A DNA stretch of 64,000 bases, from the NCBI GenBank assembly GCA_934675625.1, contig CAKURH010000001.1:474-64473 (forward strand), read 5' to 3'. Position numbers and translations under genes: made by a program. Source of the DNA: an uncultured Kiritimatiellota bacterium. Lineage in GTDB: Bacteria; Verrucomicrobiota; Kiritimatiellia; RFP12; UBA1067. Numbering within the stretch: the stretch's first letter is position 1; every line of letters starts with the position of its first letter. The notes beneath the pieces are model-generated. The model was given only the letters and a program-made list of their open reading frames with translations. It made no database searches and was not told where the DNA came from. Below, piece by piece: positions 938 through 59,604 of the stretch.

Positions 938-2116
938 CTAGTTCGTCGGCAGGCGGAAGACGCCCGGCGGGTAGCCGAAGGCGGCCTTGATGGCGCGCGA
1001 GAAGTGGCTTGCGTTGCAGAAGCCGCAGCGCGCGGCGACTTCCGCGATCGGCAGGCGCGTGTTCGTGAGGAGCGCGACGCCTTCGCTCAGCCGGAGGCGC
1101 AGGATCTCCTCGCGGATCGGATGCCCGAAGTGGCGCGCGGCCTTCGTCTCGATCGTGCGGACGGAGATGCCGAGCGCCTCGGCGACGTGCGCGAGCCGGA
1201 ACGGCTCCGCGAGATGCTTGCGGGCGTAGGCGATGACGCGCGCGAGGATGGGGTCTGCGATCGCGAACGTGTCGGTTGAGCGGCGCGTGACGATGCGCGG
1301 AAAGGCGATGTCCACGAGCGGATGGCGCGGTCGTCCGTGCAGCAGGTCGTCGAGCGCCTTGGCGCAGATGCGCCCGGTGTGTTCGCCGTCGAGCGAGATG
1401 GACGAGAGCGAGGGCGTCGCCGTCTCGCAGAGGATCTCGTCGTCGTCCGTCGAGAGGACGGCGAGGTCGTCCGGCACGGCGATGCCGGCGTCGAGGCAGG
1501 CGGCGAGGATCTGCTGGCCCCGGATGTCCTTGACCGTGTAGAGCGCGGTGCGTTTCGGCAGGGCCTTGAGCCAGGCGCTGAGGCGCGGCGCCTCGCGCGC
1601 GAAGTCGGCGCACTCGTCGGGCGAGGGCGGCGGGTAGACGGCGCAGGGGAAACCGGCGGCCCTGATCGTGCGCGCGAAGCCGTCGCGCCGTCCGTCCGAC
1701 CATTCCGCCGGACGCGGCGAGCCGACGAAGGCGAAGGAGCGGAAGCCGCCGCCGAGCAGGTGCTCGGCCGCCATGCGCCCGAGGTTCGGGTTGTCGCGGC
1801 GGACGACGATCATGTCGCGGCGGCGCGGGCGGACGGCGAGCGGCGCGTTGATGAGCACGGTCGGGCGGTTGAGGCGCGCGACGCGCGCCAGCAGCTCGGG
1901 GTTCGCCGAGAGGACGATGACGCCGTCGACGCCCCACGCGCTGACGCGCCGGAGGCCCTGCGCGGCGATGTCCCCGGTGTTCAGGTGGAAGAGCCACGGG
2001 CCCTTTTCGCGCGCGTAGTCGAGGACGCCCTCCAGGATCTTCCGCTGCGTGAAGTTCGCTGTCGGGATGGTGACGAGGATGTGCGGCGCCGCCGCGTGGC
2101 GTGTGGTTCTGCTCAT
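938..2116 (-). CDS. XylR-like hybrid transcriptional regulator: LacI-type periplasmic-binding-fold sensor domain plus C-terminal AraC-family HTH
   Basis: C-terminal AraC HTH (…IAEVAARCGFCNASHFSRAIKAAFGYPPGVF). N-terminal sugar-binding-like domain. The start at MSRTT (2116) is chosen because a TGGTATAAT box lies 6 nt upstream on this strand; the track's longer ORF reaches 2194. Confidence 0.75.
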   Translation of the reverse strand: MSRTTRHAAAPHILVTIPTANFTQRKILEGVLDYAREKGPWLFHLNTGDIAAQGLRRVSAWGVDGVIVLSANPELLARVARLNRPTVLINAPLAVRPRRRDMIVVRRDNPNLGRMAAEHLLGGGFRSFAFVGSPRPAEWSDGRRDGFARTIRAAGFPCAVYPPPSPDECADFAREAPRLSAWLKALPKRTALYTVKDIRGQQILAACLDAGIAVPDDLAVLSTDDDEILCETATPSLSSISLDGEHTGRICAKALDDLLHGRPRHPLVDIAFPRIVTRRSTDTFAIADPILARVIAYARKHLAEPFRLAHVAEALGISVRTIETKAARHFGHPIREEILRLRLSEGVALLTNTRLPIAEVAARCGFCNASHFSRAIKAAFGYPPGVFRLPTN

Positions 2117-2122
2117 GTGCGG

Positions 2123-2131
2123 ATTATACCA
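2123..2131 (-). promoter_or_regulatory. Extended -10 box TGGTATAAT, 6 nt before the start codon of the regulator (predicted leaderless transcript)
   Basis: The minus strand reads gtgTGGTATAATccgcacATG. The same architecture recurs at least five more times in the window. Confidence 0.4.
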
Positions 2132-2167
2132 CACTTCGCGTCCGTCCATCGGCATCTTGCGCATTCG

Positions 2168-2193
2168 TGCATTTAATAATGCGTGGAAATGCA
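2168..2193. promoter_or_regulatory. Inverted repeat TGCATTT-N12-AAATGCA in the divergent promoter region; candidate operator
   Basis: Seen directly: tgcatttaataatgcgtggaaatgca, between the divergently transcribed regulator (start 2116) and the 2233 operon. Confidence 0.25.
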
Positions 2194-2213
2194 ATGACGG
2201 CGCGGCGGCGTTT

Positions 2214-2222
2214 TGCTATAAT
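2214..2222 (+). promoter_or_regulatory. Extended -10-like box TGCTATAAT, 10 nt upstream of the 2233 start codon
   Basis: ttttGCTATAATttcccgtgtcATG. Confidence 0.35.
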
Positions 2223-2232
2223 TTCCCGTGTC

Positions 2233-3120
2233 ATGAGATTCTCCGTTGGATATCAGCCCGACCGGGCGTGGATCGACGCGATTGCCGCGCGCGCGGATCG
2301 CCTGGACGAAGTCTACTTCGCCTTCGGCGCACTGCCGTCCGGCCGCGCCGCCGTTGCGGACGTCGACCGTCAGCTGGAGGATCTCGGGCGGCTTGCCGAC
2401 GCGGGGCTCGGCCTCAACCTCCTCTTCAACGCGAACTGCTACGGCGCGCGGGCGCTTGCGAAGGGCTTCTTCGCGGACGTCGGCGAGACGGTCGAGCGGT
2501 TCGCGGCGGACGGCGCGCTCACGTCGGTGACGACGACCTCGCCGCTCGTCGCGAAGTTCGTGAAGGACAACTTCCCGGGCCTCAAGACGCGCGCCTCGGT
2601 CAACATGGAGATCGGGACGGTCGAAGGGATGGACTATCTCGCCGACGTCTTCGACGGCTACTACCTCAAGCGCGAGCTGAACCGCGACCGTGCGGCGGTG
2701 CGTGCGGCGAAGGCGTGGTGTGACGCGCACGGGAAGGGTCTTTATCTTCTCGCCAATTCGGGCTGTCTCAACTTCTGCTCGTCGCACGTCTTCCACGACA
2801 ACCTCGTCGCGCACGAGGCCGAGATCGCGCAGTCCGAGAACGGCTACGCCTGGCGCGGCACGTGCTGGCAGTGGCTTGCGAAGCCGGAGAACCGTGCGCA
2901 ATGGCACGCGCGCACGAACTGGATCGCGCCGGAGGACGTCGCGTCCTACGAGGGCCTCTGCACGGGCATGAAGCTTGCGACGCGCGCGAGTGCGCATCCG
3001 ATCCGCATCCTCGAATCCTACGTGACGGGCTCGCACGTCGGCGACATCCGGGGGCTTCTGGAGCCCGACCATTCGGCTCTTTTCAGGCAAAGGGACAACG
3101 AACAGAAAACGGACAACTGA
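2233..3120 (+). CDS. Peptidase-U32-like / TIM-barrel family protein of unknown specificity; first gene of the Fe-S paralog cluster
   Basis: Start MRFSVGYQPD. Order and spacing of conserved blocks resemble the U32 family (N-terminal beta-alpha start, then LLANSGCLNFCSS, a Cys-pair segment reminiscent of the U32 signature). The stop lies 2 nt before the next start. GC3-rich. Confidence 0.55.
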   Translation: MRFSVGYQPDRAWIDAIAARADRLDEVYFAFGALPSGRAAVADVDRQLEDLGRLADAGLGLNLLFNANCYGARALAKGFFADVGETVERFAADGALTSVTTTSPLVAKFVKDNFPGLKTRASVNMEIGTVEGMDYLADVFDGYYLKRELNRDRAAVRAAKAWCDAHGKGLYLLANSGCLNFCSSHVFHDNLVAHEAEIAQSENGYAWRGTCWQWLAKPENRAQWHARTNWIAPEDVASYEGLCTGMKLATRASAHPIRILESYVTGSHVGDIRGLLEPDHSALFRQRDNEQKTDN

Positions 3121-3122
3121 CC

Positions 3123-4208
3123 ATGCTCAACGCAAAGCTCATCAAGGAAATCGCGAAGAAGGCGGGGGCCGACAAGTGCGGCATCGCGCCGATTTCGCGC
3201 ATGAAGAACGCGCCGGACGAGATGAACCCGACGTTCCTCTTCCCCAACTGCAAGTCGATCGTCGGCTTCGTCTTCCGCATTCCGCGCGGCGTGCAGCGTG
3301 GCATCGAGGAGGGCACGCAGTTCTACCAGTACCCGTCGATGGCCTACGGCGGCATCAACGAGATTCTCGCGCCGGCGACGCTCTACCACGTCGGCCAGGC
3401 GATCGAGGACGCCGGCTACGAGGCGTTCGTCTACCGCAACACCGGCGCGCGCGGCTGCGTGTCGGACATGGACGGCTCGAAGGACGCGAAGCTCTCGCCG
3501 GAAGAGCAGATCGAAGTCAGCGAGAACGCGAAGGACTCGACGGCGCACCACCGCTCCGTCGACTTCACGCGCGCGACGCGCCCCGGCGAGAACGTGCCGC
3601 CCGACCTGCAGTTCCAGTTCCGCATCTGCGCGGTCGCGTGCGGCCTCGGCGAGATCGGCTGGTCGAAGATGCTGCTGACGCCGGAGTTCGGCCCGCTTCA
3701 GCGCGTCGCCTTCCTCTTCACCGACGGCGAATTCGACGCCTACGACGAGATCTACTCCGGCCCGCCCCTCTGCCGGCGGTGCGGCGCGTGCGCGCGCGAA
3801 TGTCCCGGCCACTGCATCCCGCCGATCCGGGGCGGCGCGAAATGCACGGCGTCGATCGGCGACTACACGATGGAGTGGGGCGACATCGACATGTGGAAGT
3901 GCTATGCGTTCTACACGCACGCGGGCCGCTACTACAACCCGTTCGTGCCGAAGGAGGTCTGGGACGAGAACCGCAACGGCGACCTCGACCTGCTGGAGGG
4001 GAAGACCGGCGCAAGCGAGCAGGAGATCATGAAGGTCTACAAGGCGCTCGCGAAATACTTCCCGACATGGGTCGGCTACAACATGGCGAAGTGCGGCGGC
4101 TGCATCCGCGCGTGCGTCGCGATGCTGGAGAAGCCGGGCGGGTGCCTGCACGGACGGTTCAGGAATCCGCTCCGGACACGGACGCAGCCCTGGAAGATGG
4201 AGAGGTAG
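3123..4208 (+). CDS. QueG/RdhA-superfamily-like iron-sulfur protein, paralog 1 (two Cys clusters including CxxCxxCxxxCP)
   Basis: The N-terminus MLNAKLIKEIAKKAGADKCGIAPI resembles QueG/RdhA N-termini. CRRCGACARECPGHC and a C-terminal CGGCIRAC are present. Homologous along its full length to the next two genes. Confidence 0.7.
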   Translation: MLNAKLIKEIAKKAGADKCGIAPISRMKNAPDEMNPTFLFPNCKSIVGFVFRIPRGVQRGIEEGTQFYQYPSMAYGGINEILAPATLYHVGQAIEDAGYEAFVYRNTGARGCVSDMDGSKDAKLSPEEQIEVSENAKDSTAHHRSVDFTRATRPGENVPPDLQFQFRICAVACGLGEIGWSKMLLTPEFGPLQRVAFLFTDGEFDAYDEIYSGPPLCRRCGACARECPGHCIPPIRGGAKCTASIGDYTMEWGDIDMWKCYAFYTHAGRYYNPFVPKEVWDENRNGDLDLLEGKTGASEQEIMKVYKALAKYFPTWVGYNMAKCGGCIRACVAMLEKPGGCLHGRFRNPLRTRTQPWKMER

Positions 4209-4257
4209 GAGAGAGTTGAGTGAGTTGAGAAGTTGAGATGTTGAGAGGGTGAGAAGA
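4209..4257. repeat. Purine-rich short tandem repeat (about 8-nt period, GTTGAGA core, 5 units) in the spacer between Fe-S paralogs 1 and 2
   Basis: Seen directly: gagagagttgagtgagttgagaagttgagatgttgagagggtgagaag. Confidence 0.6.
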
Positions 4258-4262
4258 AAAAC

Positions 4263-5054
4263 ATGATTGACCGAAAGACAATCGAGACGGCGGCGCGCGA
4301 ACTCGGCGCGGCAAAATTTGGCATCGGCGACCTGTCGCTCTTTGAAGGCGAAGACCCGCGACGGGATCCGAAGATGGTCTGTCCGCAGGCGAAGTGCCTC
4401 ATCGGCTTCGGCATCCCTGTGCCGAAGGGCCTCTACAAGACGATGAAGGAGGGCTCGCAGTTCTACACCTACACGACCGTGGGCGTGAAGGCCATCGACG
4501 AGGAATACTTCGAGATTTTCCTCTTCAAGATGGCGTCGCTGATCGAGGACGCGGGCTACGACGCCTGCCTCCAGCGCACGACGCCGAACCTCAAGGTGAA
4601 GGGCGACAAGACCTGCAATCCCGAGACGATCGGCATCTACGAGCTGAAGTACGCCTCGCCCGTCGAGGCCGGGAAGCCGCCGCCGGACGTCATTCTTGAC
4701 TTCGGCAAGGCCGCGCGCGCCTGCGGTCTCGGCTGGCCAGGGCGAAGCGGGCGGATCGTCAACCGTGCATTCGGCCCGTTCATGCGCTATGCGTTCATCA
4801 TCACGGACGCGGAGCTGGAGACGAATCCGCCGTTCACGGACGACCTCTGCGCCGGCTGCACGGCGTGTGCGGCGGCGTGTGACGCGGGGTGCATCGATCC
4901 CGAAAAGGGCCTCGACACGTGGAAATGCTGGGAACACTACAACAAGGCGCGCGATTTCTCGTTGCCGCGCACGCAGTGGGGCTATCAGGCCTGTCTCTGC
5001 GGCAAGAAATGCGACATCGCGTGCTATGAGCATCTAGTGGGCTGTGAGATTTGA
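4263..5054 (+). CDS. QueG/RdhA-like iron-sulfur protein, paralog 2
   Basis: MIDRKTIETAARELGAAKFGIGDL…; CAGCTACAAACDAGC and CLCGKKCDIAC; collinear with paralogs 1 and 3. Confidence 0.7.
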   Translation: MIDRKTIETAARELGAAKFGIGDLSLFEGEDPRRDPKMVCPQAKCLIGFGIPVPKGLYKTMKEGSQFYTYTTVGVKAIDEEYFEIFLFKMASLIEDAGYDACLQRTTPNLKVKGDKTCNPETIGIYELKYASPVEAGKPPPDVILDFGKAARACGLGWPGRSGRIVNRAFGPFMRYAFIITDAELETNPPFTDDLCAGCTACAAACDAGCIDPEKGLDTWKCWEHYNKARDFSLPRTQWGYQACLCGKKCDIACYEHLVGCEI

Positions 5055-5147
5055 ACGCGATGTTCATGAAAATTGAGACTTTAGATTTAAAATTTGAAAT
5101 CTAAGATTTAAGATTTAAAATTTAAGATTTGATTTGAGATTTGAGAT
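5055..5147. repeat. AT-rich 7-bp-period tandem repeat ((A/G)AGATTT, about 10 units) that runs into the start codon of paralog 3; the same family recurs at 59495-59604 in opposite orientation
   Basis: …gatttaaaatttgaaatctaagatttaagatttaaaatttaagatttgatttgagatttgagatATG… Two ttaaaattt A-tracts are spaced 21 bp apart. AT-rich against a GC-rich background. Confidence 0.6.
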
Positions 5148-6083
5148 ATGAAATCTGAAATTCTGAAATTGGCGAAGACGTGCGGCGCCGACCTCGTGGG
5201 CGTTGCGTCCGCCTCGCGCTTCCCTGCCGGCCACAAGATCTTCCGCATCTACCCGCAGGTGCAGTCGGTGCTCGGCTTCGCGTTCCGCTGTCTGCGCGGC
5301 AGCTATCGCGGCACGGAGGAGGGGACGACCTACTACCAGTACACGACAATGTCCGTCGAGAACCTGGAAGAGACGGTCATGCCCGTCGCCCTCGTGCGCC
5401 TCGCGAACCTCATTGAGTCGAAGGGCTTCACGGCCGTTCCCCAGCGTCGCCACCAGACGATCATGGAGGAGTCGGACGCGACGAACCCCGAAGTTGCCTA
5501 CGACGCGATTGCGCGCGGCCGCACGGAAGAGCCGCAGTTCGACTTCGTCGATGCGGCCGTCCGCTGCGGCCTCGGCGAAAAGGGCTTCCACGGCGCGCTC
5601 CTGACGGACGACTTCGGGCCGATGCAGCGCACCTGCTTCATCCTGACGGACGCCGCGATCGAGCCGGACGCCGTGGCCGCGCCGCATCTCTGCGACCGCT
5701 GCGGGAAATGCGCGGCGGCGTGTCCGGGCCGCAGCATCGGCGCGGACGGAGCGCTCGACCCATGGCGGTGCGCGGTCTACTACAACGGCGCGAACGGCAC
5801 GAAGAACCCGTTCATGCCGCCTGAGGCGTTCCCCGACTTCCCCGACCGCCTGGCGATCATCGCGGGCGAGGCGGAGATCGACCCCGCAAAGGCGAAGCGG
5901 ATTCTCGACGAGATCTACTTCTATCCCCCGGCCCAGCACGCCTATACCTGCTCGATCTGCGGGCGCGCGTGCGACGTCGCCTGCTACTGCCACCTGGAGG
6001 CGCGGGGCGCGCTGAAGCGGACGTTCAAGACGCCGTTCCGCACGCGCCCCGAATGGAAATTCAAGCTTGAGGACTTCGCATGA
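5148..6083 (+). CDS. QueG/RdhA-like iron-sulfur protein, paralog 3
   Basis: MKSEILKLAKTCGADLVGVASA…; CDRCGKCAAACPG and CSICGRACDVAC; overlaps the next gene by 4 nt. Confidence 0.7.
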   Translation: MKSEILKLAKTCGADLVGVASASRFPAGHKIFRIYPQVQSVLGFAFRCLRGSYRGTEEGTTYYQYTTMSVENLEETVMPVALVRLANLIESKGFTAVPQRRHQTIMEESDATNPEVAYDAIARGRTEEPQFDFVDAAVRCGLGEKGFHGALLTDDFGPMQRTCFILTDAAIEPDAVAAPHLCDRCGKCAAACPGRSIGADGALDPWRCAVYYNGANGTKNPFMPPEAFPDFPDRLAIIAGEAEIDPAKAKRILDEIYFYPPAQHAYTCSICGRACDVACYCHLEARGALKRTFKTPFRTRPEWKFKLEDFA

Positions 6084-7717
6084 GCTTCCACGGGATTGAC
6101 TACCTCGTCATCGTCGCCTTCTTCGCCATCCTGCTCGCGATTCCCGTCTGGGCCAGTCGGCGGAGCGCGCAGGGCGCCTCCGACTTCTTCCACTCCGGCC
6201 GCTCGATGCCGTGGTGGCTCATCGGCATCTCGATGGTTGCGGCGATGACGTCGACCAATTCGGCGAACCTCTTCACGCAGTTCATCCGCGAGGACGGGTT
6301 CGCCGGGAACTGGGCGTGGTGGTCGTTCCTCACGGGCGGCGTTCTCACGGTCTTCGTCTACGCGAAGCTCTGGCACCGTTCGGGGGCGACGACGGACATC
6401 GCGTTCTACGAGCTGCGCTATTCGGGAAGGCCCGCCGCGTTCCTGCGCGGCTTCCGCGCCGTCTACCTTGGCGTCGTCTACAATCTCGTCGTGATGGCGA
6501 CCGTCCTTCTGGGCGCAGTCAAGCTCGGCACCGTCCTCTTCGACGTGCCCGCGTGGGTCGTCCTTGCCGTCACGGCCGTGGCGAGCGTCCTCTATTCGAC
6601 GCTCGGCGGCATTCGCGGCACGATCTACGCCGACTTCTACCTTTTCGCCGTCATCATGGTCGGCGCGGTCGCGGTCATGGTCTTCGCGCTCGCGCAGCCG
6701 GCGGTCGGCGGCTTCGACGCGCTGATGCGCCATGCGGCGGTCGTGCCGAAGCTCGGCTTCTTCCCGGACTTCTCGGACACGGACACGCTCGTCGCCGTCT
6801 TCGTCATCCCCGTCGCGATCCAGTGGTGGAACGTCTGGTATTCCGGCTCCGAGCCGGGCGGCGGCGGGTACATCGTCCAGCGCATGCTGACGGCGAAGAG
6901 CGGCGGCCACGCGCTCGGCGGGACGCTCTTCGCGCAGATCGTGCAGTACGCGATCCGCCCCTGGCCGTGGTATGTCGTCGCGTTCGCCTCGCTCGTCGTC
7001 TTCCCCGACCTCGACTCGATCCGGGCGGCGTTTCCGCACGTTGATCCGAAGTATGTCGGCAACGACATGGCGTATCCGGCGATGATCAAGTTCGTGCCGG
7101 CCGGCTGGCTCGGCGTGGTCGCCGCGTCGCTCATGGGCGCGCTGTTCTCGACGATTGCCGCGCAGCTCGCGATGGGCGCGAACTACGTGGCGCACGACGT
7201 GTGGAAGCGCTTCGTCCACCCGGCGGCGGACGCGCACGAGCTCGTCGCCGTCGCGCGGGGAACGTCGGTCGCGCTCATGGTCGCGGGCGCGCTCCTCGCG
7301 CCGCTGCTTGCGGACGCGAAGGCGGGCTTCGACCTGATGATCATGGTCGGCGCGGGCACGGGCGCGGTCTTCCTGCTGCGGTGGTTCTGGATGCGCATCA
7401 ACGCCTGGACGGAGATCGTGGCGTTGAGCGTCTCGATCGCCTGTGCCGTCTTCTTCCAGATGGTGGGGCCACACGTCTTCGCGACGCCGCTGGCCTTTGG
7501 ACAGCGGCTGCTCCTGACGATCGGCGTCACGACGGCCGCGTGGCTCGCGGCGACGTTCCTCACGGTGCCCGAACCGCCGGCGGTCATCGCCGATTTCCGT
7601 GGGCGCGTCCGCGCCTCCGGACGTGACGTGGGGCTGGGGGTCCTCTGGACCTTCCTCGTCTCCGTCGCGATCTTCGCGTTCATGTGGGCCCTTGGGGCGT
7701 TGGTGGTGAACGGATGA
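6080..7717 (+). CDS. Sodium:solute symporter (SSS/SSF family) transporter
   Basis: 545 aa, multi-pass hydrophobic. The N-terminal region is typical of the SSF family (…GRSMPWWLIGISMVAAMTSTNSAN…). ATGA overlap with the upstream gene. Confidence 0.8.
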   Translation: MSFHGIDYLVIVAFFAILLAIPVWASRRSAQGASDFFHSGRSMPWWLIGISMVAAMTSTNSANLFTQFIREDGFAGNWAWWSFLTGGVLTVFVYAKLWHRSGATTDIAFYELRYSGRPAAFLRGFRAVYLGVVYNLVVMATVLLGAVKLGTVLFDVPAWVVLAVTAVASVLYSTLGGIRGTIYADFYLFAVIMVGAVAVMVFALAQPAVGGFDALMRHAAVVPKLGFFPDFSDTDTLVAVFVIPVAIQWWNVWYSGSEPGGGGYIVQRMLTAKSGGHALGGTLFAQIVQYAIRPWPWYVVAFASLVVFPDLDSIRAAFPHVDPKYVGNDMAYPAMIKFVPAGWLGVVAASLMGALFSTIAAQLAMGANYVAHDVWKRFVHPAADAHELVAVARGTSVALMVAGALLAPLLADAKAGFDLMIMVGAGTGAVFLLRWFWMRINAWTEIVALSVSIACAVFFQMVGPHVFATPLAFGQRLLLTIGVTTAAWLAATFLTVPEPPAVIADFRGRVRASGRDVGLGVLWTFLVSVAIFAFMWALGALVVNG

Positions 7718-7719
7718 AG

Positions 7720-8883
7720 TTAGGGTTTCGAGGCGCGGCGGCGGTAGGCTGACATGGTTTGGCCCGTTGCGCGCTTGAAGAGCGTCTTCAGGTGCGCTTC
7801 GCTGTTGAAGCCGCAGCGTTCGCCGAGACGCGCGAGCGGCAGGTCGCTCGTGCGGAGCAGCTCCTTGACGTGATCGAGCCGGGCGCGCTGGAGCGTCTTC
7901 GCCGCCGTCGTGCCGAGCACGTCGCGGAAGTGCAGTTCCAGCAGGCGTTCGGAGGTGCCGGCCGCGCGCGCGATGTCGGCGATGCGGATCGGTTCGGCGG
8001 CATGGCGGCGAATGAACTCCGTCGCCAGGGCCACGGTGCGTGCCGTGCCCGTGACGTCGGCCGTGGAGACGCGCGCCACGACATCGCGGACGCCGTAGCG
8101 GATCGGCTCCCGCGCGACGCGCGCCCCCCGCAGCAGACGCTCCAGCGTCTCGACCGCGAGATGTCCGCCGTCGTTGAAGTCGGGCCAGACGCTCGTGAGC
8201 GTCGGAATCGTGTTCTCGCAGATGTACTCCTCGTTGTCGACGCCCACGAGCAGCAGCTGTTCGGGAATCTTCAGCCCCGCCGTGCGGCAGGTGTCGATGA
8301 CGTCCTTCGCCCGCTGGTCGAATTCCGCGAAGACGCCGCAGGGCTTGGGCAGGTTCGTCAGCCAGCGCGCCAGGTCGGCCGTGCCGCGCGCGGGCGGATC
8401 GTAGATGTCGACGTCCAGCCCCTGTGCGGCCAGCGTCTCGCGAAACGCCGCGCAGCGGCGACGGAGGAACGGGTTGCAGACCGTCGCCGGAACGTAGGCG
8501 AAGTGGCGGAGTCTCTTGCCGAGGAGAAGTTCGGCGGCGGCCCGTCCGATGGCTGCGTTGTCACAGCAGACGTGGCGCACGGCAAGGCGCGGCTCGTCGG
8601 GGTCACCCGACGTGTCGTCGTAGGCGGCGATCAGCGCGCGTAGTCCGGCGTCCGCGAGACGGCGGGCCTGCGGCGGCGTGAGCGGGCGGTCGGTGATCAG
8701 TCCGTCCGGCCGCCAGCGGACGAGGTCGGCGAGGCGGTTCAGGGGATGCCCGTGCAGAAGCCGCACGTCCCAGCGGGGACGCTGCGCGGCGGCGTGGAGG
8801 ACGCCGCCGAGGAGGTCGCGCGCGGCCTTTTGGCGCAAGTCGACCTGAACGAGGATGTGAAGGGTGTCTGACGACGGCTTCAT
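7720..8883 (-). CDS. XylR-like hybrid regulator (LacI-type sensor domain plus AraC HTH), paralog of 938-2116
   Basis: C-terminal AraC HTH (…LGERCGFNSEAHLKTLFKRATGQTMSAYRR). The start at MKPSS (8883) is preferred because TGGTATACT sits 12 nt upstream on this strand; the track ORF extends to 8904. Confidence 0.75.
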   Translation of the reverse strand: MKPSSDTLHILVQVDLRQKAARDLLGGVLHAAAQRPRWDVRLLHGHPLNRLADLVRWRPDGLITDRPLTPPQARRLADAGLRALIAAYDDTSGDPDEPRLAVRHVCCDNAAIGRAAAELLLGKRLRHFAYVPATVCNPFLRRRCAAFRETLAAQGLDVDIYDPPARGTADLARWLTNLPKPCGVFAEFDQRAKDVIDTCRTAGLKIPEQLLLVGVDNEEYICENTIPTLTSVWPDFNDGGHLAVETLERLLRGARVAREPIRYGVRDVVARVSTADVTGTARTVALATEFIRRHAAEPIRIADIARAAGTSERLLELHFRDVLGTTAAKTLQRARLDHVKELLRTSDLPLARLGERCGFNSEAHLKTLFKRATGQTMSAYRRRASKP

Positions 8884-8894
8884 GTTCGCCGGAC

Positions 8895-8903
8895 AGTATA
8901 CCA
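8895..8903 (-). promoter_or_regulatory. Extended -10 box TGGTATACT for the regulator (leaderless-type spacing)
   Basis: The minus strand reads aTGGTATACTgtccggcgaacATG. Confidence 0.35.
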
Positions 8904-8995
8904 TATTTCCAACGCCAAGGTCGCAAAAAGCACATGCGGTTCGTAAAACAGGACAAGATTTTTCGGGAAAACAAATTGCCCGAACGGCCGCCGTA

Positions 8996-9004
8996 TGCTA
9001 TACT
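8996..9004 (+). promoter_or_regulatory. Extended -10-like box TGCTATACT, 7 nt before the ATG at 9012 (leaderless-type)
   Basis: ccgtaTGCTATACTtcacctcATGATG. Confidence 0.35.
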
Positions 9005-9011
9005 TCACCTC

Positions 9012-10772
9012 ATGATGCTGACAAGAGGATTTTTTGCCTTGATTCTGACGGCTGTCGTGTCCGGCCTGTCGTCGTCCGCCGCGCGTGCGGGCGAGACGCC
9101 GGACCCGCGCGTGCGCGCCTACGTCGACCCGGTGCGCGTCGTCTGGCAGACCGAGGCGCGGGCGCGCGACGACGGCTGGCCGGCGCGCGCGCGGGTCGAG
9201 GGCGCCGCGCGGCTGCTGGCGCCCAAGTTCGGGCAGGTCTGCGAGGGGCCGTTCGGGAAGGCTAGCGGTGCGCGGCTCGCGAACGGCGGGGAGGACGCGG
9301 GGCTCATGCTCGACTTCGGCCGCGAGCTGCACGGCGGGCTCCAGCTCGGCGTCAGCCCCGGCGGGACGGCGCGCGCGCGGCTGCGCGTGCGCTTCGGCGA
9401 GTCGGTCGCCGAGGCGATGAGCTCGGTCGGCGAGAGGGGCGCCTCGAACGACCACGCGCTGCGCGACTTCGTCGTGGAGGTGCCGTCGTTCGGCACGCTG
9501 GAGGTCGGCTGCACGGGCTTCCGCTTCGTGCGCCTCGACCTCGTCAGCGGCGGCGAGGTCGGCCTCGAGTTCGTGCGGGCGGTGTCCCTGATGCGCCCGA
9601 TGCGGCGGGTCGGCTCCTTCCGCTCGTCCGACGGGCGGCTGGACCGCGTCTTCGAGACGGCCGTGCGCACGGTGCACCTCTGCTGCCAGGACTACCTGTG
9701 GGACGGCATCAAGCGCGACCGGCTCGTCTGGGTCGGCGACATGCACCCGGAGATGGCGGTGGTCCTGAACGTGTTCGGCGCGGCGGAGATCGTCCCGCGG
9801 TCGCTGGAGTACGCGATCGCCGTGACGCCGCCGGACCGGTGGATGAACACGATGGCGCCCTACACGCTGTGGTTCGTGCGCAACCTCGCCGCGTGGTGCC
9901 GCTACACGGGGCGGGCGGACCTCCTGCGCCGCCACGCGGCCTACTTCCGCGCGACGCTTGCGCACGTCGCGACGGCGGTCTCGCCGGACGGCGAGTGGAC
10001 GGCCGGCAAGTTCCTCGACTGGCCGAACCAGCGCAACCCTGAGGCCGTGGCGGCCGGGATGCAGGGGCTCCTGGCCCTCGCGTGCGACGACGCGGCGGAC
10101 CTGCTCGGCCGCCTCGGCGACGGCGGGGAGGCGCGGGCGTGGCGCGGGCGCGCGGAGGCCGCGCGCCGCGTCCGGGCGGACGCGCACGGCTCGAAGGCGG
10201 CGGCGGCGATGCTCGCGCTCGGCGGCTGCCTCGACCCGCAGGCGGCCTTCCGCGACGTCCTCGGGCGGGACGGCCACCGGGGCGTCTCGACGTTCTACGG
10301 CTACTACATGCTGGAGGCGATGAGCCTGGCGGGCGAGGGGCGGCGCGCGCTCGACACGGTGCGCGACTACTGGGGCGGCATGCTCGACGTCGGCGCGACG
10401 AGCTTCTGGGAGAACTTCGACCTCGCGTGGACGAACGGCTGCTTCCGCATCGACGAGCTGCCCGTCGCGGGCAAGAGGGACGTCCACGGTGACTGTGGCG
10501 AGTTCTGCTACCCGGGCTTCCGGCACTCGCTCTGCCACGGCTGGGCGGGCGGCCCCGCCACGTGGTGCATCGGCCGCGTCCTCGGCATCCGGCCGGTCGC
10601 GGACGGCTGCCGCCGCGTGGAGGTGAGGCCCTGCCTCGGCGACCTCGCCTGGGCGGAGGGGGCGATGGCGCTGCCGGACGGCGGCGCGGTGCGGGTGCGG
10701 GCCGCGCGGCGCGCGGACGGGACGCTGGACGTGCAGGTCGAGGCGCCGGACGGCGTGGAGGTCGTCCGGTGA
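9012..10772 (+). CDS. Secreted six-hairpin glycoside hydrolase, alpha-L-rhamnosidase (GH78)-like
   Basis: Signal-peptide-like N-terminus (MMLTRGFFALILTAVVSGLSSSAARA). DYLWDGIKRDRLVWVGDMHPE matches the D..RDR..W.GD block of the GH78 catalytic (alpha/alpha)6 domain. The track ORF starts at 8934, but the internal MM at 9012 follows a -10 box. Confidence 0.6.
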   Translation: MMLTRGFFALILTAVVSGLSSSAARAGETPDPRVRAYVDPVRVVWQTEARARDDGWPARARVEGAARLLAPKFGQVCEGPFGKASGARLANGGEDAGLMLDFGRELHGGLQLGVSPGGTARARLRVRFGESVAEAMSSVGERGASNDHALRDFVVEVPSFGTLEVGCTGFRFVRLDLVSGGEVGLEFVRAVSLMRPMRRVGSFRSSDGRLDRVFETAVRTVHLCCQDYLWDGIKRDRLVWVGDMHPEMAVVLNVFGAAEIVPRSLEYAIAVTPPDRWMNTMAPYTLWFVRNLAAWCRYTGRADLLRRHAAYFRATLAHVATAVSPDGEWTAGKFLDWPNQRNPEAVAAGMQGLLALACDDAADLLGRLGDGGEARAWRGRAEAARRVRADAHGSKAAAAMLALGGCLDPQAAFRDVLGRDGHRGVSTFYGYYMLEAMSLAGEGRRALDTVRDYWGGMLDVGATSFWENFDLAWTNGCFRIDELPVAGKRDVHGDCGEFCYPGFRHSLCHGWAGGPATWCIGRVLGIRPVADGCRRVEVRPCLGDLAWAEGAMALPDGGAVRVRAARRADGTLDVQVEAPDGVEVVR

Positions 10773-13700
10773 CGAACCTCCGCATTTACCTCACTGCGGG
10801 GGTTGGCTTCCTCGCGCTGGCGCTCGCGGGAACGGGCCGCCTCTGCGCGCAGGGCGCGGACGAGGCCCCGGCAGAGGAAGTGGTCGAGCGCCGCACGTCG
10901 CTGAACGGCACATGGAAGTTTTCGGGGCTGGTCGCCGCGCCGCGCCCGTTCGGTTCGCTCACGGACAAGGAGCGTGAACGCCTGTCGCCGATGACGGACG
11001 ATGCGGACTGGCAGACGATTCCCGTGCCGCGCGACTGGTGGACGCTGCCGAAATATGAAACCTACCGAAGCGGGCCTTTCGACACGAACCGCGTCTACTT
11101 CTGCGGCTTCTATCGCAAGGCGTTTGCGGTCGCGACGCCGCGCGACGGACGGCGGCGGTTTCTGCGGTTCGAGGAAATTGGCGCGGAGGCGGAGCTGTTC
11201 GTCAACGGACGGTTTGTCGCGCACCACCTCGGCGATTTCGTGCCGTTCGAGGCCGAGGTGACGGATTTCCTCGTCGCCGGGACGAACCTCGTCGCCCTGC
11301 GCGTCCGTGCTGACTACGCGCCGCTCGTGCCGCCGCCGAACAAGCCGCCCTACACGCGCCCCTATGGTGCGCACTGGGATCGCTACGCGATCAAGGGCGG
11401 CCTTTGGCACAACGTCACGCTGATCGAGACGCCGTCCGTCCGTCTGACCGAAGTGCGCGTCGATCCGGCGGAAGACCTGTCGTCGGTGCGCATCCGCCTC
11501 GTCGTCGACAACGCGGGCGGGCGGCTGGACGGCACGCTCACCGCCACGTGGGCGGCGGACACGGCGGCGAACGCGGCACGCCCCGTCGCCACCAGTCGGG
11601 AGACGGTGTGCGCGTCGGGGCGGACGGATCTCACGCTGGACCTCGCGGCGGGCGGACGCAAGCCTTGGTCGCTTGAGGCGCCGAATCTCCATTCCCTCGT
11701 CCTCGTGCTGACGGATGCCGCCGGACGCGTCCGCGCCACGCAGCGGGTGCGCCTCGGCCTCCGCACGATGCGCGTCCGCAACGGACGCTTTGAACTCAAC
11801 GGCGCACCGGTTTACCTCGTCGGCGACTCGCTGCATTCCCACAAGTACGGTGGGCGCGGACGCGACAATCTGGCGGACATCCGCCGTGACCTCGCGGCGT
11901 GGAAGGCGAACGGCGTCAACCTGCTGCGGACGGCGCATGCGCCGGCGATTCCCGAAGTCTACGATATGGCCGACGAGCTGGGGCTGATGATCTACGACGA
12001 ATGGTGCATGAGCTTCTGCAACACGTTGGACGAAGCGGCGTTCGAGCGAAACAACCTCCCGGCACTGGCGGCCTTTGTCCGCCGTGACTACAACCACGCA
12101 AGCGTCGTGTGCTGGAGCCTTGGAAACGAGGTGAAACACCAATCGCCCGAAGTCGGGCGGCAGCTCGATCTCCAGTACGATCTCGTCAAGCGTCTGGACG
12201 GGCAGAACCGTCCGGCCTGCGCCTTTTCGGGCGTGGCCGACGTCTGGCTCTACGGCACGGCGCGACGCAAGACTGACTTTCTCGACACGCACCGCTACCA
12301 CGGCATCGATTCACGCAGCTGGACGGAGTGGTTTCCGGCGATGAACGCATTCTACGCGCAGATGGCGGCGACGTATGGACGGGACGGACGCCTGGATCTG
12401 CCGCTGTTTCTGGGTGAGTGCGTCGGCGCGGGCTGGGGCATCCGTTCCGATGACGGGATGCGTCCGGGTGCTGTCGCGCGTTACGTGGACTGGTCGCGTC
12501 GCCCCTGTTCATGGGGCAAGTCGGAAGGGATGCCGTTCGCCGGCGCGACAGGGCTTTTGCCGATTCTCGATTCGGCGCGGGGGCGGCATTACCTGCAAGG
12601 CTATCTCGCGACGCGCCTGGTTGACCTGTTCCGCCAGGATCGGCGGCTCGCGGGCTTCGCGCCTTGGTTCGCCGATCCGACGGTGCCGGGGTGGATGCGT
12701 TGGACGCAGCCGACGTATCCGCTGTTGCGGAATGACGCCACGGACAGCGGACGGCTGATGTTCCGCCAATTGTTTGCGGGCGAGACGCGGCGCATCGACT
12801 GTGTGCTTGTAAACGACACGGCGCAGACGTTGGTCGGATTACGTGCGCACGTGTCGTTTGCAGACGGTTCGCGGGAGGTTCCGCTGACGTCGGTGGATGT
12901 GGGTGTGGCCGGGCCGTTTGCGGAAGCTGTCCGTCCGTTGGATCTGACGTTGCCGCCGGACGTGGCGGGTGATGGCGAGATCCGTCTGCGCGTCGTCGAT
13001 GCCGCCGGACGCGACAGCCGCAACGCCTATTCCGTGCGTGTGCACCGTCGCGCCGAGGCGACTGCGCCCGTGGCGGACGCGGCGGCACACGAGATGGTGC
13101 TTTATGCGGCGGACGCCACGTTGGAGGCGGTCTGTCGCCGTCTAGGTCTCCGCGCACGAGTTTGGCCGGACGGTGCCGAACTGCCGGAATCGGGAACGCT
13201 CGTCGTGCCGCCGGGCGCGGCGGTGCGGTCGGATCGCGAACTGGCGGCCTTCGTCCGGCGCGGCGGCACGTTGCTGGCGTTGGAGCCGGACGGATTGACG
13301 CCGCCGGGGTTTCCGTTCCTGCGTCTGCGTGCCGCGCCGAACCACTTGGTCGAGCCAGTGTCCGTCGCGCATCCTGTCTTCGACGGTCTGACGGCGTCGG
13401 ACTTCGATACGTGGGCGGAGCGTCCGAATGGGCACGTCGTCGAACGTGTCCTCGCGCCGATCGACGCGGGTGTGCTGGCGGCGCGTCCGCGCTACATCAA
13501 GGACGCGGCGGGCATGGCGTTGGCCGAGTATCGCTTCGGCGCGGGACGGTATGTGGTCTCGACGGTCGCGGCACACGGCCTTTGGGGCGTCAATCCGGCG
13601 GCGACGCGGTATCTGCGCAACTTGCTCGCCTCTGTTGTGGGCGGACAGCACGACGGGGCGGCGGCGCCCATGCTCGATCCGCCGGATTTTCGCCCGACGC

Positions 13701-17703: not shown

Positions 17704-20700
17704 ATGAATACAAAACTAATAGTTAAAGCGTTTCTCGGGGCGGTTTTCGCCTTGACCGGCGCGCGGCTCTCGGCGGAAACGCGGGTCGTCGACAAGCTCC
17801 ATGGGCCGTATTTTTCGGTTCAAGAAGCCGTGGATGCGGCATCTGAAGGCGATACGGTCTTCATCAAAAACGGCGTCCATGACGTGGGCGGCAGTCTCGA
17901 CGGCTTTAAGACGTCCATGTCGAACCGCGTCTACGTCACGAAGTCCCTCACGCTCGTCGGCGAGTCGAAGGAGGGCGCGATCATCAAGGGGGCCTACGCG
18001 ACGGAGGGCGTTGACGACAAGGGCCTCGGTTGCGGTGCGAACGCCGTGCGCTGTCTCGGCATCAATGCGGACAACGTCGTCGTCTCGAACCTGACGCTCA
18101 CGGGCGGCGCGACGCACAGCACGTCCGCCGGGAACGACAAGGAGGAGAACAACGGCGGCGGCGTCTACGTGGCGAACGGGAGGACGGGCGTCGTCCTTGT
18201 GGACTGCATCGTCTCCAACAACGTCGCGCGACGTGCGGGTGCGCTGCGCTACGCCAACGACGGTGCGGCCAATCACGGCAACTGCCTTCTCGTGCGCACG
18301 TGGGTTCACGCCAACAAGGCGCTAGACCGCGATCCCGCCGTGCGCGGATGTCTCGCGGCGTTCTGCCTCTTCACGGGGCATTACAGCAGCTCCAGCCTCT
18401 CCTATGCGGTGACGTTCGTGAACTGCACGTTCGCGGACGGCTTCGGGCGCAACCACAGCGGTAGCGCGGACGTGGCGGGCTACAACTGCCTCTTCGCCGA
18501 CACGTGGTTCAAGGACGAGAACGCGGTGGATCAGGCCCCGGCCGCCGCGCAGTGGCACAACTGCGCGTTCAACAAGCAGGACGCCACCACGACCTCGACG
18601 ACGAACGCGGCCTGCGTCTTCAATCCCGGCTATGACCTCTTCATGGCGCCGCCGCTCGCCGACTACCGCCTCCATGACGGCGCGATGACAGTCATCGGCA
18701 AGGGCGACGCTTCGTTCCTCGATCAGATTCCCGAAGCATATCGGAACATCGACTTCTATGGCCATGCGGTCGATGCCGCGTCCGTGAGTCTCGGCTGTGC
18801 GCAGGAAGTCGTCGCACCGACCGGCGGCACGATCACGTTTGCCGGGCAGAGCGGGATGTCGGACGCGAAACAGCCGCTCGGCAGCTATGGCGTGAAGACG
18901 GATTGCGGTCTCTATTCCTTCAACGGACGGCCCCTTGGAAACTCGAAAGACCTGGGCTACGTCCGCACGATGGAGGGCCGCACGGTCGTTACGGTCACGC
19001 ACGATCCGGCAGGCGCAACCTCAGAGGCGCGCCAAAATGGGCTTCACTCGTTTGCCGCGTCGGGATCGGACACGATGCGGCGCTTCGCGCAGATGGACGG
19101 CTCGTTTGCCCTGATGGCGCCGCCCGCCGGAAAGACGCTTACGCTTACGCCCACGTTCAACGATGCCGTCCTTACGGTCGATCGCGCCTCCACGTCCGAA
19201 AATCCGGATGGGACGGAAGACGCGCCCTATGCGAGCATTCAGGCGGCGATTGACAAAGTTGCTTCGGGAAAGTTCGCGACGATTCGCGTCAAGGCGGGCG
19301 TCTACGACAACGATGCGGGACGCTTGGCCAACAACCTCACGAACCGAATCTTCTCGAATGGCCGCAAGGTGAGGCTCGTCTCGGTGGACGGACGCGGCAA
19401 GGCCGTTCTGCTTGGTGCTCCCGATCCGAGCGTCGCACTCGATGCTTGGCCGTTTGGCTGCGGGGCGGGCGCGATGCGGTGCGCGGTCCTGCAGGACGGA
19501 TGCGCTATTCAGGGCTTTGCCTTGACGCGCGGCTACTCGAACACGAACGCCGACAACACGGGCCGTCGCGGCGGCGCACTCTGGCTGAACCAGGGCGCGG
19601 CGGCGCTCGACTGCGTCATCACGAACAACGTAGGCTGGCAGGGCGTCGCGATCAACGGAGCGGAATCCGGCCTGGTGCCGTCGGCGTTTGCCCTGCGGTG
19701 CTACATCGCCGACAATTATCCGATTACGGACGCCGCAAAGACAGGCGGCATTGGAGGCATCGTCCGCTCGACGACCGTTGGCTCGTCGATTCTCTACGAC
19801 AACCACGGCAGCAACTTCGGCAGCTATGAGCGGCAGTACACGTTCCAGACGACGCTTGCGGACGGTGCGGGCGCGGACAACGGCAACCTGCTCAATGGCG
19901 CCAATAACGTAAACGCCGTCATCCTCGCGAAGACTGGCAACCTCAGTAGTCCGACGCTCATCGGTGGCGTCTACCAGACGGCAAACGGCAAAATCAATGT
20001 GGAGGCCTCGTCCTCGTTCATGAACGCCGATCCCCTACTGGCCGATCCGGCGTACGGCGACTTTCGCTTGGGCGCGACCTCGCCCGCGCGAACGTGTGGC
20101 GTGACGACGCACGACGACTTTACGGATTCGACGAAGGCGGCCTACTACATGTTCGGCGCGACGGACTTCTTCGGCAACGTCTTCCGCCTGTTCGACGGCA
20201 AGCCCGTCTGCGGTGCGGTCGACCTCTATGCGCCGACGGTCATCTTCAACGGCGAGACGAAGGTGTTGGGCGTGTCGTCCGACCGCACGCTCACGTACAC
20301 GAGTACGGGCGACGATCCGCATCCGTGGCTTGGTCTGGAGGTGACAGAGAACGGCACCGTCACGACGAACGCGACGAAGAGCTTCACCTACACGGTGCCG
20401 GATTCGATAGACAACCCGTATGCTTTGACGATTCGCGACCTCTATGACTCGAACTGGTACGTGAGCGATGCGGACGGCGATGATGCGAATGCGGGTTCGT
20501 CCGCCGCGCCGAAGAAGACGCTCAAGGGTGCGCTTCAGTACGCCGTGTCGGGTGACACCGTGCACGTCGCGGCGGGCACGTATGCGACCGAGACGATGAC
20601 GCAGACGAAGGCGTTTGGAGCCATGAACAATGCAGCGTATGCGCTTCCGTCGCGCGCCGTCGTGCCGGCAGGTGTGTCCGTCATCGGTGCGGGCGCGGAC

Positions 20701-42068: not shown

Positions 42069-42548
42069 ATGACAAAGAGAAAAGCACGTAATGAAAAGCC
42101 GCAGGGGCGGCTAGTCGAGACAGGCGTCCGCCCGGCTGGCGTGGCTCTGCTGTCGTTGGCGTGCGCAGGTCTGCTCTCCGGCTTCGCGACAGGGGCTGAC
42201 CTCTCCCCTAGGGGGGGGGCGGCAGCGACGGCGGGCTCACGGCGGGGCGCGACGCGCGCACGTGGGGCAAGCCCGATCCGCGCCTCTTCGACGTCGTCCT
42301 GCCCGACTTCTTCGAGGTGGACTTCGTCCGCGTCTACGACGAGGGGCCGGACGGAACGGAAAATGAGAATTCTGTGCGGAACTAATCAAAAGGAGATCCA
42401 GACATGCAACTCACCACAATCTTGGCGGCTTCGGCCTTGCAGTTCGCGACCGGCATCACGACTGACCGTCCGGCGGGCGTCTTCATCGAGGGCGTCGGCG
42501 CGGCGTTCAGGACCGAGGGCGCGGCGGCGTTCACGCGCTGGACGGTGA
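42069..42548 (+). pseudogene. Small signal-peptide-bearing ORF interrupted by a G9 tract; in the sequenced state it runs into an Arg/Ser-rich out-of-frame tail. With G10 it would encode a 105-aa protein ending at 42385.
   Basis: MTKRKARNEK…VALLSLACAGLLSGFATGADLSPRGG-(G9). One extra G gives …KPDPRLFDVVLPDFFEVDFVRVYDEGPDGTENENSVRN*, which has strong GC3 bias and a stop just before the RBS of the next gene. Confidence 0.35.
42211..42219. repeat. Homopolymeric G9 tract inside the small ORF; candidate phase-variation or frameshift site
   Basis: ctctccccta-GGGGGGGGG-cggcagc. Confidence 0.55.
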
Positions 42549-59491: not shown

Positions 59492-59494
59492 TCT

Positions 59495-59604
59495 CAAATT
59501 TTAAATCTCAAATTTCAGATTTCAAATCTTAAATCTTAAATTTCTACTTTCAAATTTTAAGCCTCAAATCTATTTTAAGCTTCAAACCTAACCCAGAATA
59601 ACCC
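59495..59604. repeat. AT-rich 7-bp-period tandem repeat (ATCTCAA/ATTTCAA, about 12 units); reverse-orientation relative of the 5055-5147 repeat
   Basis: tgatctcaaattttaaatctcaaatttcagatttcaaatcttaaatcttaaatttcta… Its reverse complement shares taagatttaagattt, gaaatctgaaat and aaatttgagatttaaaatttgagat with the first locus. Confidence 0.6.

Follow-up and report, generated by a model that had tools for sequence, protein, structure and literature searches.

What kind of reaction could be carried out by a gene cassette in which a U32-like barrel is followed by three iron-sulphur proteins of the reductive dehalogenase (RDH)/QueG superfamily? This question is raised by five same-strand genes, G1 to G5, which the open reading frame (ORF) listing places at 2233-7717 of a 64,000-nucleotide (nt) stretch, hereafter the window (contig CAKURH010000001.1 of assembly GCA_934675625.1, positions 474-64,473), from an uncultured Kiritimatiellota bacterium (Kiritimatiellia; RFP12; UBA1067). 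A sequence-only reading of this DNA had described five co-directional, tightly spaced or overlapping genes, and this is how they lie, from a gap of 2 nt between G1 and G2 to an overlap of 4 nt between G4 and G5, with spacers of 54 nt (G2/G3) and 93 nt (G3/G4) inside, both filled with repeats. It had also recognised no described pathway; likewise, our full-text literature searches turned up no account of the cluster or of the DUF5696 family discussed below, and the public copies that we encountered are generically named "hypothetical protein", "collagenase-like PrtC family protease", "epoxyqueuosine reductase QueG" or "ferredoxin". For G1-G4 the superfamilies are known, whereas neither the individual families nor the way they are combined has been described. 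Our preferred, tentative answer, to which we assign a probability of roughly 0.45, is that G1-G4 make up a ferredoxin-driven, reductive multi-subunit Fe-S enzyme whose substrate resembles a sugar or cyclitol. The four genes concerned are the following:

2233-3120, plus strand: G1, 295 amino acids (aa), a U32-like (β/α)8 TIM barrel with a presumed [4Fe-4S] site at C69/C178/C182/C211 (profile, AlphaFold (AF2) model, Foldseek).
3123-4208, plus strand: G2, 361 aa, an RDH/QueG-superfamily paralog with two [4Fe-4S] motifs (TIGR02486 at 1.1e-9, far under its cut-off; AF2, Foldseek).
4263-5054, plus strand: G3, 263 aa, the shortest RDH/QueG-superfamily paralog (TIGR00276 at 6.4e-13, under its cut-off; alignments).
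5148-6083, plus strand: G4, 311 aa, an RDH/QueG-superfamily paralog with two [4Fe-4S] motifs (Fer4_16 at 8e-6; PDB phmmer; TIGR02486 at 1.2e-10, under its cut-off).

The first evidence comes from the distribution of the cassette. A pattern scan covering one genome per species revealed a G1 relative encoded in at least 572 genomes. Of the best 80, almost all are metagenome-assembled genomes (MAGs) from gut, rumen or faeces; they belong to Kiritimatiellia, Lentisphaerae/Victivallales, one Planctomycetia and many Clostridia (Oscillospiraceae, Christensenellaceae, Acutalibacteraceae, Lachnospiraceae and Ruminococcus); the closest public relatives are gut Kiritimatiellia MAGs, with G1 identity of up to 94%. 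ORF clustering was performed on 87 loci, 79 of which contain the paralogs. Exactly three are present in 70 of the 79, and in 69, spread over several phyla, genes of G2, G3 and G4 type follow straight after G1 in this order, giving the conserved synteny that the sequence-only reading had suggested looking for. The arrangement is far beyond chance. Furthermore, each of G2, G3 and G4 has its own orthologue (1:1:1) from Kiritimatiellia to Clostridia, with a median ratio of best to second-best score of 2.9, while pairwise identity among the three paralogs is 33-35%. Identity between the window and Clostridia is 73-78% for G2, 58-66% for G4, 47-55% for G1 and 44-53% for G3, and because these values are so unequal, the high identity of G2 must reflect constraint and not just recent transfer.

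A trio fixed in number, order and orthology argues against recent diversification and favours an obligate multi-subunit enzyme. The proposal that three tandem paralogs signal diversification of substrate range is therefore not upheld: the set is ancient and fixed, which fits either an obligate hetero-oligomer or fixed sequential steps. Separately, in a Kiritimatiellia MAG recovered from horse faeces (locus L011), a normal trio has two further G2-like genes downstream of it (9577-11724, ~32% identity to G2), and the symporter stands upstream of G1 rather than after G4.

We then asked what the paralogs are. They had been called QueG/RdhA-like Fe-S proteins, and at the superfamily level this is borne out. 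Searched alone against the PDB with phmmer, G4 matched PceA (8q4h, 9.6e-10) and QueG (5d6s, 6e-7), and a profile of 62 G2/G3/G4 sequences matched PceA (8q4h, 1.2e-17), QueG (5d08, 1.2e-15) and NpRdhA (1e-8). By hhalign, the G2-G4 family aligned to E. coli QueG with 97% probability (E 1.2e-10), spanning the GLG...FGP..R...TD segment and both Fe-S motifs. As regards the family models, TIGR00276 (QueG) gave 15.6, 48.4 and 35.9 bits for G2, G3 and G4 against a cut-off of 200, and TIGR02486 (RdhA) 38.7, 35.0 and 41.8 bits against a cut-off of 160; PF08331 (DUF1730) and PF13486 had no match in any of the three (Pfam). The profile searches that had been advised thus returned the RdhA and QueG models, along with PF00474 for G5, but every RdhA/QueG score is far under its cut-off and G1 drew no match. 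Within the trio, G2 was modelled with AF2 (predicted local distance difference test, pLDDT, 74; predicted template modelling score, pTM, 0.80). The model shows a nitroreductase-like corrinoid-type domain followed by a ferredoxin module, and all 46 of its Foldseek matches at E<1e-3 are PceA, QueG or NpRdhA, with the B12 chaperone CblC next.

Across the 62 sequences, seven of the Fe-S cysteines are invariant (C217, C220, C223, C227, C260, C327 and C331, G2 numbering) and the eighth, C324, is conserved in at least 90%; the eight needed for two [4Fe-4S] clusters are kept in each paralog, G3 included. Also invariant are Y70, E95, G174, G176, G190, R194, T200 and D201, of which Y70 (62/62) lies within a conserved loop, in N-terminal domains that have no sequence alignment to QueG. 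The sequences contain no DYH motif. No twin-arginine signal was seen at the N-termini of G2-G4, and no RdhB-like or small membrane-protein gene is present in the operon; we therefore read the enzyme as cytoplasmic. Judged by their sequences, G2-G4 are genuine but divergent members of the class III corrinoid enzymes, outside the QueG and RdhA families, and are probably corrinoid-dependent. G2 is the most conserved of G1-G4 and the candidate catalytic subunit.

One additional cysteine was observed in the trio. C173 of G2 (~3639-3641) lies in a CGLG motif and is found in 61 of the 62 sequences, whereas this position reads AGLG or AGIG in the aligned PceA and QueG chains. On these alignments it is a family-specific residue beside the presumed cofactor site.

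G1 required a longer search. Homologue alignments place its start at the ATG at 2233 rather than at an upstream GTG. It has no match in Pfam or NCBIfam, PDB searches with the single sequence and with a 17-sequence set found nothing, and Peptidase_U32 (PF01136) is touched by only 2 of the 17 homologues (E 0.14). An exhaustive profile search yielded 1180 representative clusters, and a 68-sequence profile made from these matched PDB 5D88 (Mk0906), the single solved U32 protein, at E 3.3e-4. The AF2 model of G1 (pLDDT 93.6, pTM 0.91) also has 5D88 as its top Foldseek match (E 9.6e-12, template modelling (TM) score 0.63/0.73); other TIM barrels score 3e-5 or weaker, so that 5D88 leads the next barrel by about six orders of magnitude. 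A distant member of the G1 family falls just short of the Peptidase_U32 cut-off (21.1 versus 22.4 bits), and a weak precomputed match exists for another. Since distant members lie near the PF01136 threshold, and one stands in an RDH-free context, G1 is a single clade within a broader U32-like superfamily.

Within the G1 family, C178 and C211 are invariant and C69 and C182 are at least 90% conserved in the alignments. Characterised U32 oxidases likewise possess four cysteines, arranged as CX6CX15CX3C, which bind a [4Fe-4S] cluster (PMC11574389). However, hhalign of the G1 family gave 11% probability against E. coli UbiU and nothing against UbiV, so that any correspondence between the cysteines of G1 and those of U32 proteins is conjectural. 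Of the earlier description of G1 as U32-family-like, the fold has stood up, with the 5D88 match as its support, while the lack of a Pfam match and the non-canonical cysteine pattern speak against formal membership. Taken together, the modelling supports a U32-like fold with a predicted Cys4 site, and Pfam U32 membership is not borne out.

Two further observations concern the G1 family. Most orthologues, including those of Clostridia (~340 aa), extend further at the C-terminus, where a CxxxCxxCxYC motif may form a second metal site; this extension is absent from the G1 of the window (295 aa, ending at 3120) and from its Kiritimatiellia relatives. In locus L090 (6973-9044), which has lipid A genes alongside and no RDH-like genes, a distant G1 relative with 28% identity and a weak Peptidase_U32 match follows an unannotated gene of 343 aa that overlaps it; these two may form a U32-type pair with another role.

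To what kind of compound the cassette responds is suggested by its regulators and by the gene that follows G4. The features involved are these:

938-2194, minus strand: R1, a XylR-type regulator, likely start 2116 (Peripla_BP_3 4.7e-35, HTH_18 2.7e-18).
2157-2222, plus strand: control region, with a block at 2157-2198, a nested dyad at 2161-2192 and a promoter-like site at 2194-2222 (sequence, promoter scan).
6080-7717, plus strand: G5, 545 aa, a Na+/solute symporter of the SGLT branch (PF00474 3.6e-26).
7720-8904, minus strand: R2, a second XylR-type regulator, convergent with G5 (Peripla_BP_3 4e-25, HTH_18 5e-19).
8934-10772, divergent from R2: a glycoside hydrolase family 78 (GH78)-like gene (Bac_rhamnosid6H).

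Both regulators combine Peripla_BP_3 and HTH_18, well over the cut-offs, that is, a LacI-type sugar-binding sensor, resembling periplasmic binding proteins, with an AraC-type HTH; the identification of two XylR-type regulators is thereby confirmed. They do flank the genes on either side, as had been noted, but only the upstream, divergent one travels with the cassette. A divergent regulator stands beside the cassette in 73 loci (AraC-type in 63, XylR-type in 10), R1 orthologues lie divergently upstream of G1 in 10 loci of the Planctomycetes-Verrucomicrobia-Chlamydiae (PVC) group, and in related loci the regulator family sits upstream and divergent at a median offset of -1291. Between R2 and the GH78-like gene, which it faces, promoter-like sites occur on either strand (8976-9024), and R2 is not conserved with the cassette; it probably belongs to, or controls, the GH78-like gene rather than the cassette.

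The R1 ORF extends to a TTG at 2194, its likely start being the ATG at 2116 (MSRTTRH...), which leaves a gap of 116 nt to G1. Here, a promoter-like ATGACG-17-TGcTATAAT (2194-2222; promoter scan score 10/12, with TG extension) ends 10 nt ahead of the G1 start, and a nested 5-bp dyad, GCATT..GCATT-TAAT-AATGC..AATGC (2161-2192), overlaps its -35 element. The block at 2157-2198 is conserved in the close relatives L008 and L009, and the inner dyad of L009 carries a symmetric double change (GCAAT-TAAT-ATTGC). An inverted-repeat operator had been proposed at this place. The conserved nested dyad agrees with it, but the repeat is weaker than claimed, and a search for inverted repeats with 6-nt seeds reported none at 2161-2192. 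We regard the dyad as a reasonable but short operator candidate.

The proposed SSS transporter was confirmed: G5 scores 92.4 bits on PF00474 (SSF; cut-off 22.8, E 3.6e-26), and its closest solved relatives are vSGLT (2xq2, 1.6e-31) and SGLT1 (3.4e-21). The gene right after G4, mostly less than 40 nt away (range -58 to +76 nt), varies between loci. A symporter takes this place in 9 loci, all from the PVC group (Kiritimatiellia and relatives). In 17 Clostridia loci it is replaced by a GFO/IDH/MocA-type protein of 420 aa whose best matches are DgpA (1.9e-17), IolG, levoglucosan dehydrogenase and disaccharide/glycoside 3-dehydrogenases; in 15 loci by DUF5696, homologous to the GH129 α-N-acetylgalactosaminidase NagBb (5e-16); and in 4-5 loci by a 664-aa (α/α)6-like protein of a family with no match in the PDB or NCBIfam. 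Sugar-type sensors, an SGLT-type symporter and glycosidase- or sugar-dehydrogenase-like fifth genes together suggest a sugar- or cyclitol-like substrate. The idea of an imported sugar-type molecule is thus plausible, but the transporter itself lies outside the conserved core.

Further out, 124 downstream and 115 upstream neighbour proteins were compared with Pfam, and no family occurred in more than 5 of them. A link to SGL, SDR, UxuA and KDG genes, drawn from two early contexts, was dropped as core evidence when it recurred in only 2-3 of ~85 loci. In 3-4 Clostridia loci (L034, 4909-8975; L035; L082), a glycyl-radical enzyme (PFL-like + Gly_radical, ~740 aa) is encoded just past the AraC regulator, and is followed by two more conserved genes (~260 and ~365 aa); it may belong to an anaerobic pathway linked to the cassette in some of the carriers.

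How could these parts work together? A multi-subunit enzyme best accounts for the fixed trio, its tight spacing, its strong though unequal conservation and the presence of a Cys4 TIM barrel as partner, and a precedent for G1 with partners exists in that known U32 enzymes require a second Fe-S partner (PMC11574389). From the homology of G2-G4, the cofactor set would be up to seven [4Fe-4S] clusters and probably a corrinoid. Beyond the gene order, folds and conserved residues described above, we infer complex formation, cobalamin binding, an electron donor, a direction of reaction and a substrate as follows. G1, with one Cys4 site, and G2, G3 and G4, as an obligate class III trio in which each member would bind two [4Fe-4S] clusters and have a corrinoid-type domain intact at its N-terminus, would form one cytoplasmic enzyme, induced through the sugar-type regulator. 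Its substrate would be imported by the SGLT-type G5 in Kiritimatiellia and relatives, and in Clostridia would be provided within the cell by the GH129-like glycosidase or the GFO-type sugar 3-dehydrogenase. Only two class III chemistries are known, both of them two-electron reductive cleavages: one breaks C-halogen bonds, the other the C-O bond of an epoxide (PMC4646009, PMC5175355). The reaction that we consider most likely is a two-electron reductive C-O cleavage at low potential, driven by ferredoxin and modelled on QueG, such as a dehydroxylation or the reduction of an epoxide or ether, with G2 as the putative catalytic subunit.

Several findings weigh against this proposal. The known U32 enzymes are hydroxylases, oxidative and not reductive, and the cysteine spacing of G1, C69...C178-x3-C182-x28-C211, differs from the U32 CX6CX15CX3C. 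The hhalign alignment to QueG begins only at the GLG motif, so that the N-terminal domains do not align, and the catalytic Asp and the Tyr above the corrin (Y101 in QueG, Y246 in PceA) are left unmapped; class III proteins have no cobalamin motif (PMC4646009), and hence there is no binding residue in G2-G4 that could be checked. An Rfam scan of the whole window detected neither a cobalamin riboswitch nor any other Rfam family. Genes past the fifth position are unconserved, and no conserved electron-donor gene is found among the scanned neighbours. Finally, the G1-family proteins of 453-727 aa carry unrelated Pfam domains or none, no G2-G4-like region occurs among them, and they thus provide no gene fusion in favour of the putative complex.

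In a bolder version, class III corrinoid enzymes would gain in G1-G4 their first member beyond dehalogenation and queuosine synthesis, a hetero-oligomeric reductase with three active sites that takes oxygen functions off a sugar or cyclitol of dietary origin under the anoxic conditions of the gut; its steps could be either successive dehydroxylations or ether/epoxide cleavage. We consider this version quite unlikely. If true, it could explain gut conversions that have been observed for a long time but are enzymatically unassigned, e.g. those of cyclitols, quinate/shikimate-type acids or methylated sugars.

The main rival turns the cassette round and makes it an O2-independent hydroxylase, in which G1 would be the catalytic subunit, a U32-type oxidase with a sugar-derived substrate, and G2-G4 would mainly form a multi-cluster electron-acceptor chain in place of the second U32 subunit of UbiU/UbiV. 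The nearest structure to G1 is indeed a U32 protein, characterised U32 enzymes are heterodimeric Fe-S hydroxylases with more than one cluster (PMC11574389, PMC10990095), and G2-G4 together would offer six clusters. However, strong purifying selection acts on the N-terminal corrinoid-type domain of each paralog, with invariant residues of its own, which would be needless in mere ferredoxins. Moreover, the most conserved subunit is G2 and not G1, and G1 lacks the canonical U32 cysteine motif and fails PF01136. We judge this hydroxylase unlikely.

The low mutual identity of the paralogs (just 33-35%) and the two extra G2-like copies in L011 could instead point to three independent reductases, diverged for different substrates and accompanied by a separate U32-type enzyme. 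Such diversification predicts variable copy number and lineage-specific expansions, whereas the number and order of the trio are fixed, with 1:1:1 orthology across phyla and the same layout in 69 of 79 loci, which makes independent reductases distinctly improbable.

Compared with the hydroxylase, the remaining explanations are less likely. One is Co(I)-dependent cleavage of sugar or cyclitol methyl ethers (e.g. 4-O-methyl-glucuronate, pinitol), with G1 as a methyl-handling TIM-barrel partner. Co(I) is a known demethylating nucleophile, the carriers come from plant-fibre-rich gut and rumen, AXE1 esterase, GH2, GH78-like and GH106 genes adjoin the cluster, and UxuA, KDG-kinase and aldolase genes occur in two contexts. 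On the other hand, no conserved methyl-acceptor or folate-linked gene was found among the scanned neighbours, the UxuA/SGL/SDR link holds in only 2-3 of ~85 loci, and methyltransferase action is not known for class III enzymes; only a slim chance is left to this explanation. Reductive dehalogenation of halogenated natural products, catabolic or respiratory, would suit the best sequence matches of the paralogs, which are PceA-type dehalogenases, but TIGR02486 reaches only 35-42 bits against 160, a PF13486 match, a twin-arginine signal and an RdhB anchor are all missing, and the surroundings are sugar-type regulators, a sugar transporter and a glycosidase, so that we hold it to be very improbable. 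Housekeeping RNA modification by a QueG-like reductase with a TrhP/RlhA-like hydroxylase is barely credible: RNA-modifying enzymes do occur in both parent families (PMC5175355, PMC6599085), but the cassette has an inducible AraC/XylR regulator, shares its operon with a symporter, glycosidase or sugar dehydrogenase, is patchy and gut-restricted in distribution, and lacks a DYH motif, a PF08331 match and a TIGR00276 score anywhere near the cut-off.

The two spacers within the operon deserve a brief description:

4209-4262, plus strand: G2-G3 spacer, with purine-rich 8-nt tandem repeats (Tandem Repeats Finder, TRF).
5055-5147, plus strand: G3-G4 spacer, a portion of an AT-rich heptamer array (TRF, promoter scan).

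The repeats of the G2-G3 spacer (4209-4256) consist of 5.8 copies of GAGAAGTT (TRF). The heptamer array (5067-5170, TRF), with ~15 copies of roughly TGAAATT/TAAGATT, reaches into the start of G4, and two promoter-like matches lie inside its G3-G4 spacer portion. Together, the two spacer arrays explain a local dip in GC. The same heptamer motif family recurs in an intergenic region 54 kb away (59490-59575), where none is expected by chance. A remnant of it is present in the G3-G4 spacer of the 94% relative L008, while the Kiritimatiellia relative L001 has no repeat spacers, its G2-G3 gap being 19 nt and its G3 and G4 overlapping. The wider window has 65% GC and is rich in carbohydrate-active enzyme genes (an AXE1 esterase, the GH78-like gene, several GH2 and a GH106; Pfam). 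Amid its GH2/GH106 genes lie three large ORFs with no Pfam match, at 17704-21897 (1397 aa), 42404-44827 (807 aa) and 53476-55170 (564 aa), the first two with signal-peptide-like N-termini; all three may encode uncharacterised carbohydrate-active proteins.

The authors of the QueG structure foresaw that further class III families exist and would be hard to find for want of a cobalamin motif (PMC4646009). U32 Fe-S proteins are themselves poorly understood, and the present cassette unites U32-like and class III-type families in one conserved, regulated and unannotated unit. Tied as it is to carbohydrate-type genes, it offers a clonable target for a new anaerobic redox reaction in the metabolism of diet or host glycans, and a route to testing the role of a U32-like Fe-S barrel beside corrinoid-type partners.

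How, finally, does the cassette compare with known systems? One parallel is with the GFO/IDH/MocA 3-dehydrogenase systems for glycoside cleavage and C-glycosides (DgpA; BT_2158/BT_2159 families), which the 420-aa fifth protein of the 17 Clostridia loci resembles. The resemblance is confined to the Rossmann domain and is far under the family cut-offs; unlike in those systems, no lyase or isomerase partner genes occur in the loci with annotated neighbours, and the GFO gene is absent from the window.

With the U32 oxidases UbiU/UbiV, TrhP and RlhA, and with Mk0906 (5D88, the nearest), G1 shares a TIM-barrel fold and four conserved cysteines. U32 enzymes work with additional Fe-S partners (PMC11574389), and the same is predicted for G1, the partners being encoded next door. 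It differs from the oxidases in failing PF01136, in its cysteine pattern and in its hhalign probability to UbiU (11%), and where UbiU/UbiV combine with a second U32 subunit, the putative partners of G1 are RDH/QueG-like.

The RdhA proteins (PceA 4UQU/8Q4H, the catabolic NpRdhA 4RAS) provide the best profile matches to G2-G4 (1.2e-17) and have the same fold, with a two-cluster ferredoxin module beside a nitroreductase-like corrinoid domain. In contrast to RdhA, G2-G4 have no PF13486 match, twin-arginine signal, RdhB or reductase fusion, score 35-42 bits on TIGR02486 (cut-off 160), are far shorter (263-361 versus 450-700 aa) and contain the additional conserved cysteine in the CGLG motif.

QueG shares with G2-G4 the N-terminal GAD-x-x-G-I-A start, the GLG...FGP..R...TD segment, both [4Fe-4S] motifs, the overall fold (as judged from the G2 model) and a cytoplasmic location. 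The paralogs differ from it in their TIGR00276 scores (16-48 bits, cut-off 200) and in having neither DUF1730 nor the DYH motif; because the hhalign alignment stops shortly past the Fe-S motifs, no counterpart of the C-terminal tRNA-binding helical domain of QueG is seen. Whereas QueG is one enzyme, the cassette encodes three paralogs paired with a U32-like protein in a sugar-related context. In the QueG reaction a C-O bond of a carbocyclic polyol is reduced, and this makes the chemistry proposed here plausible for sugar-like substrates.

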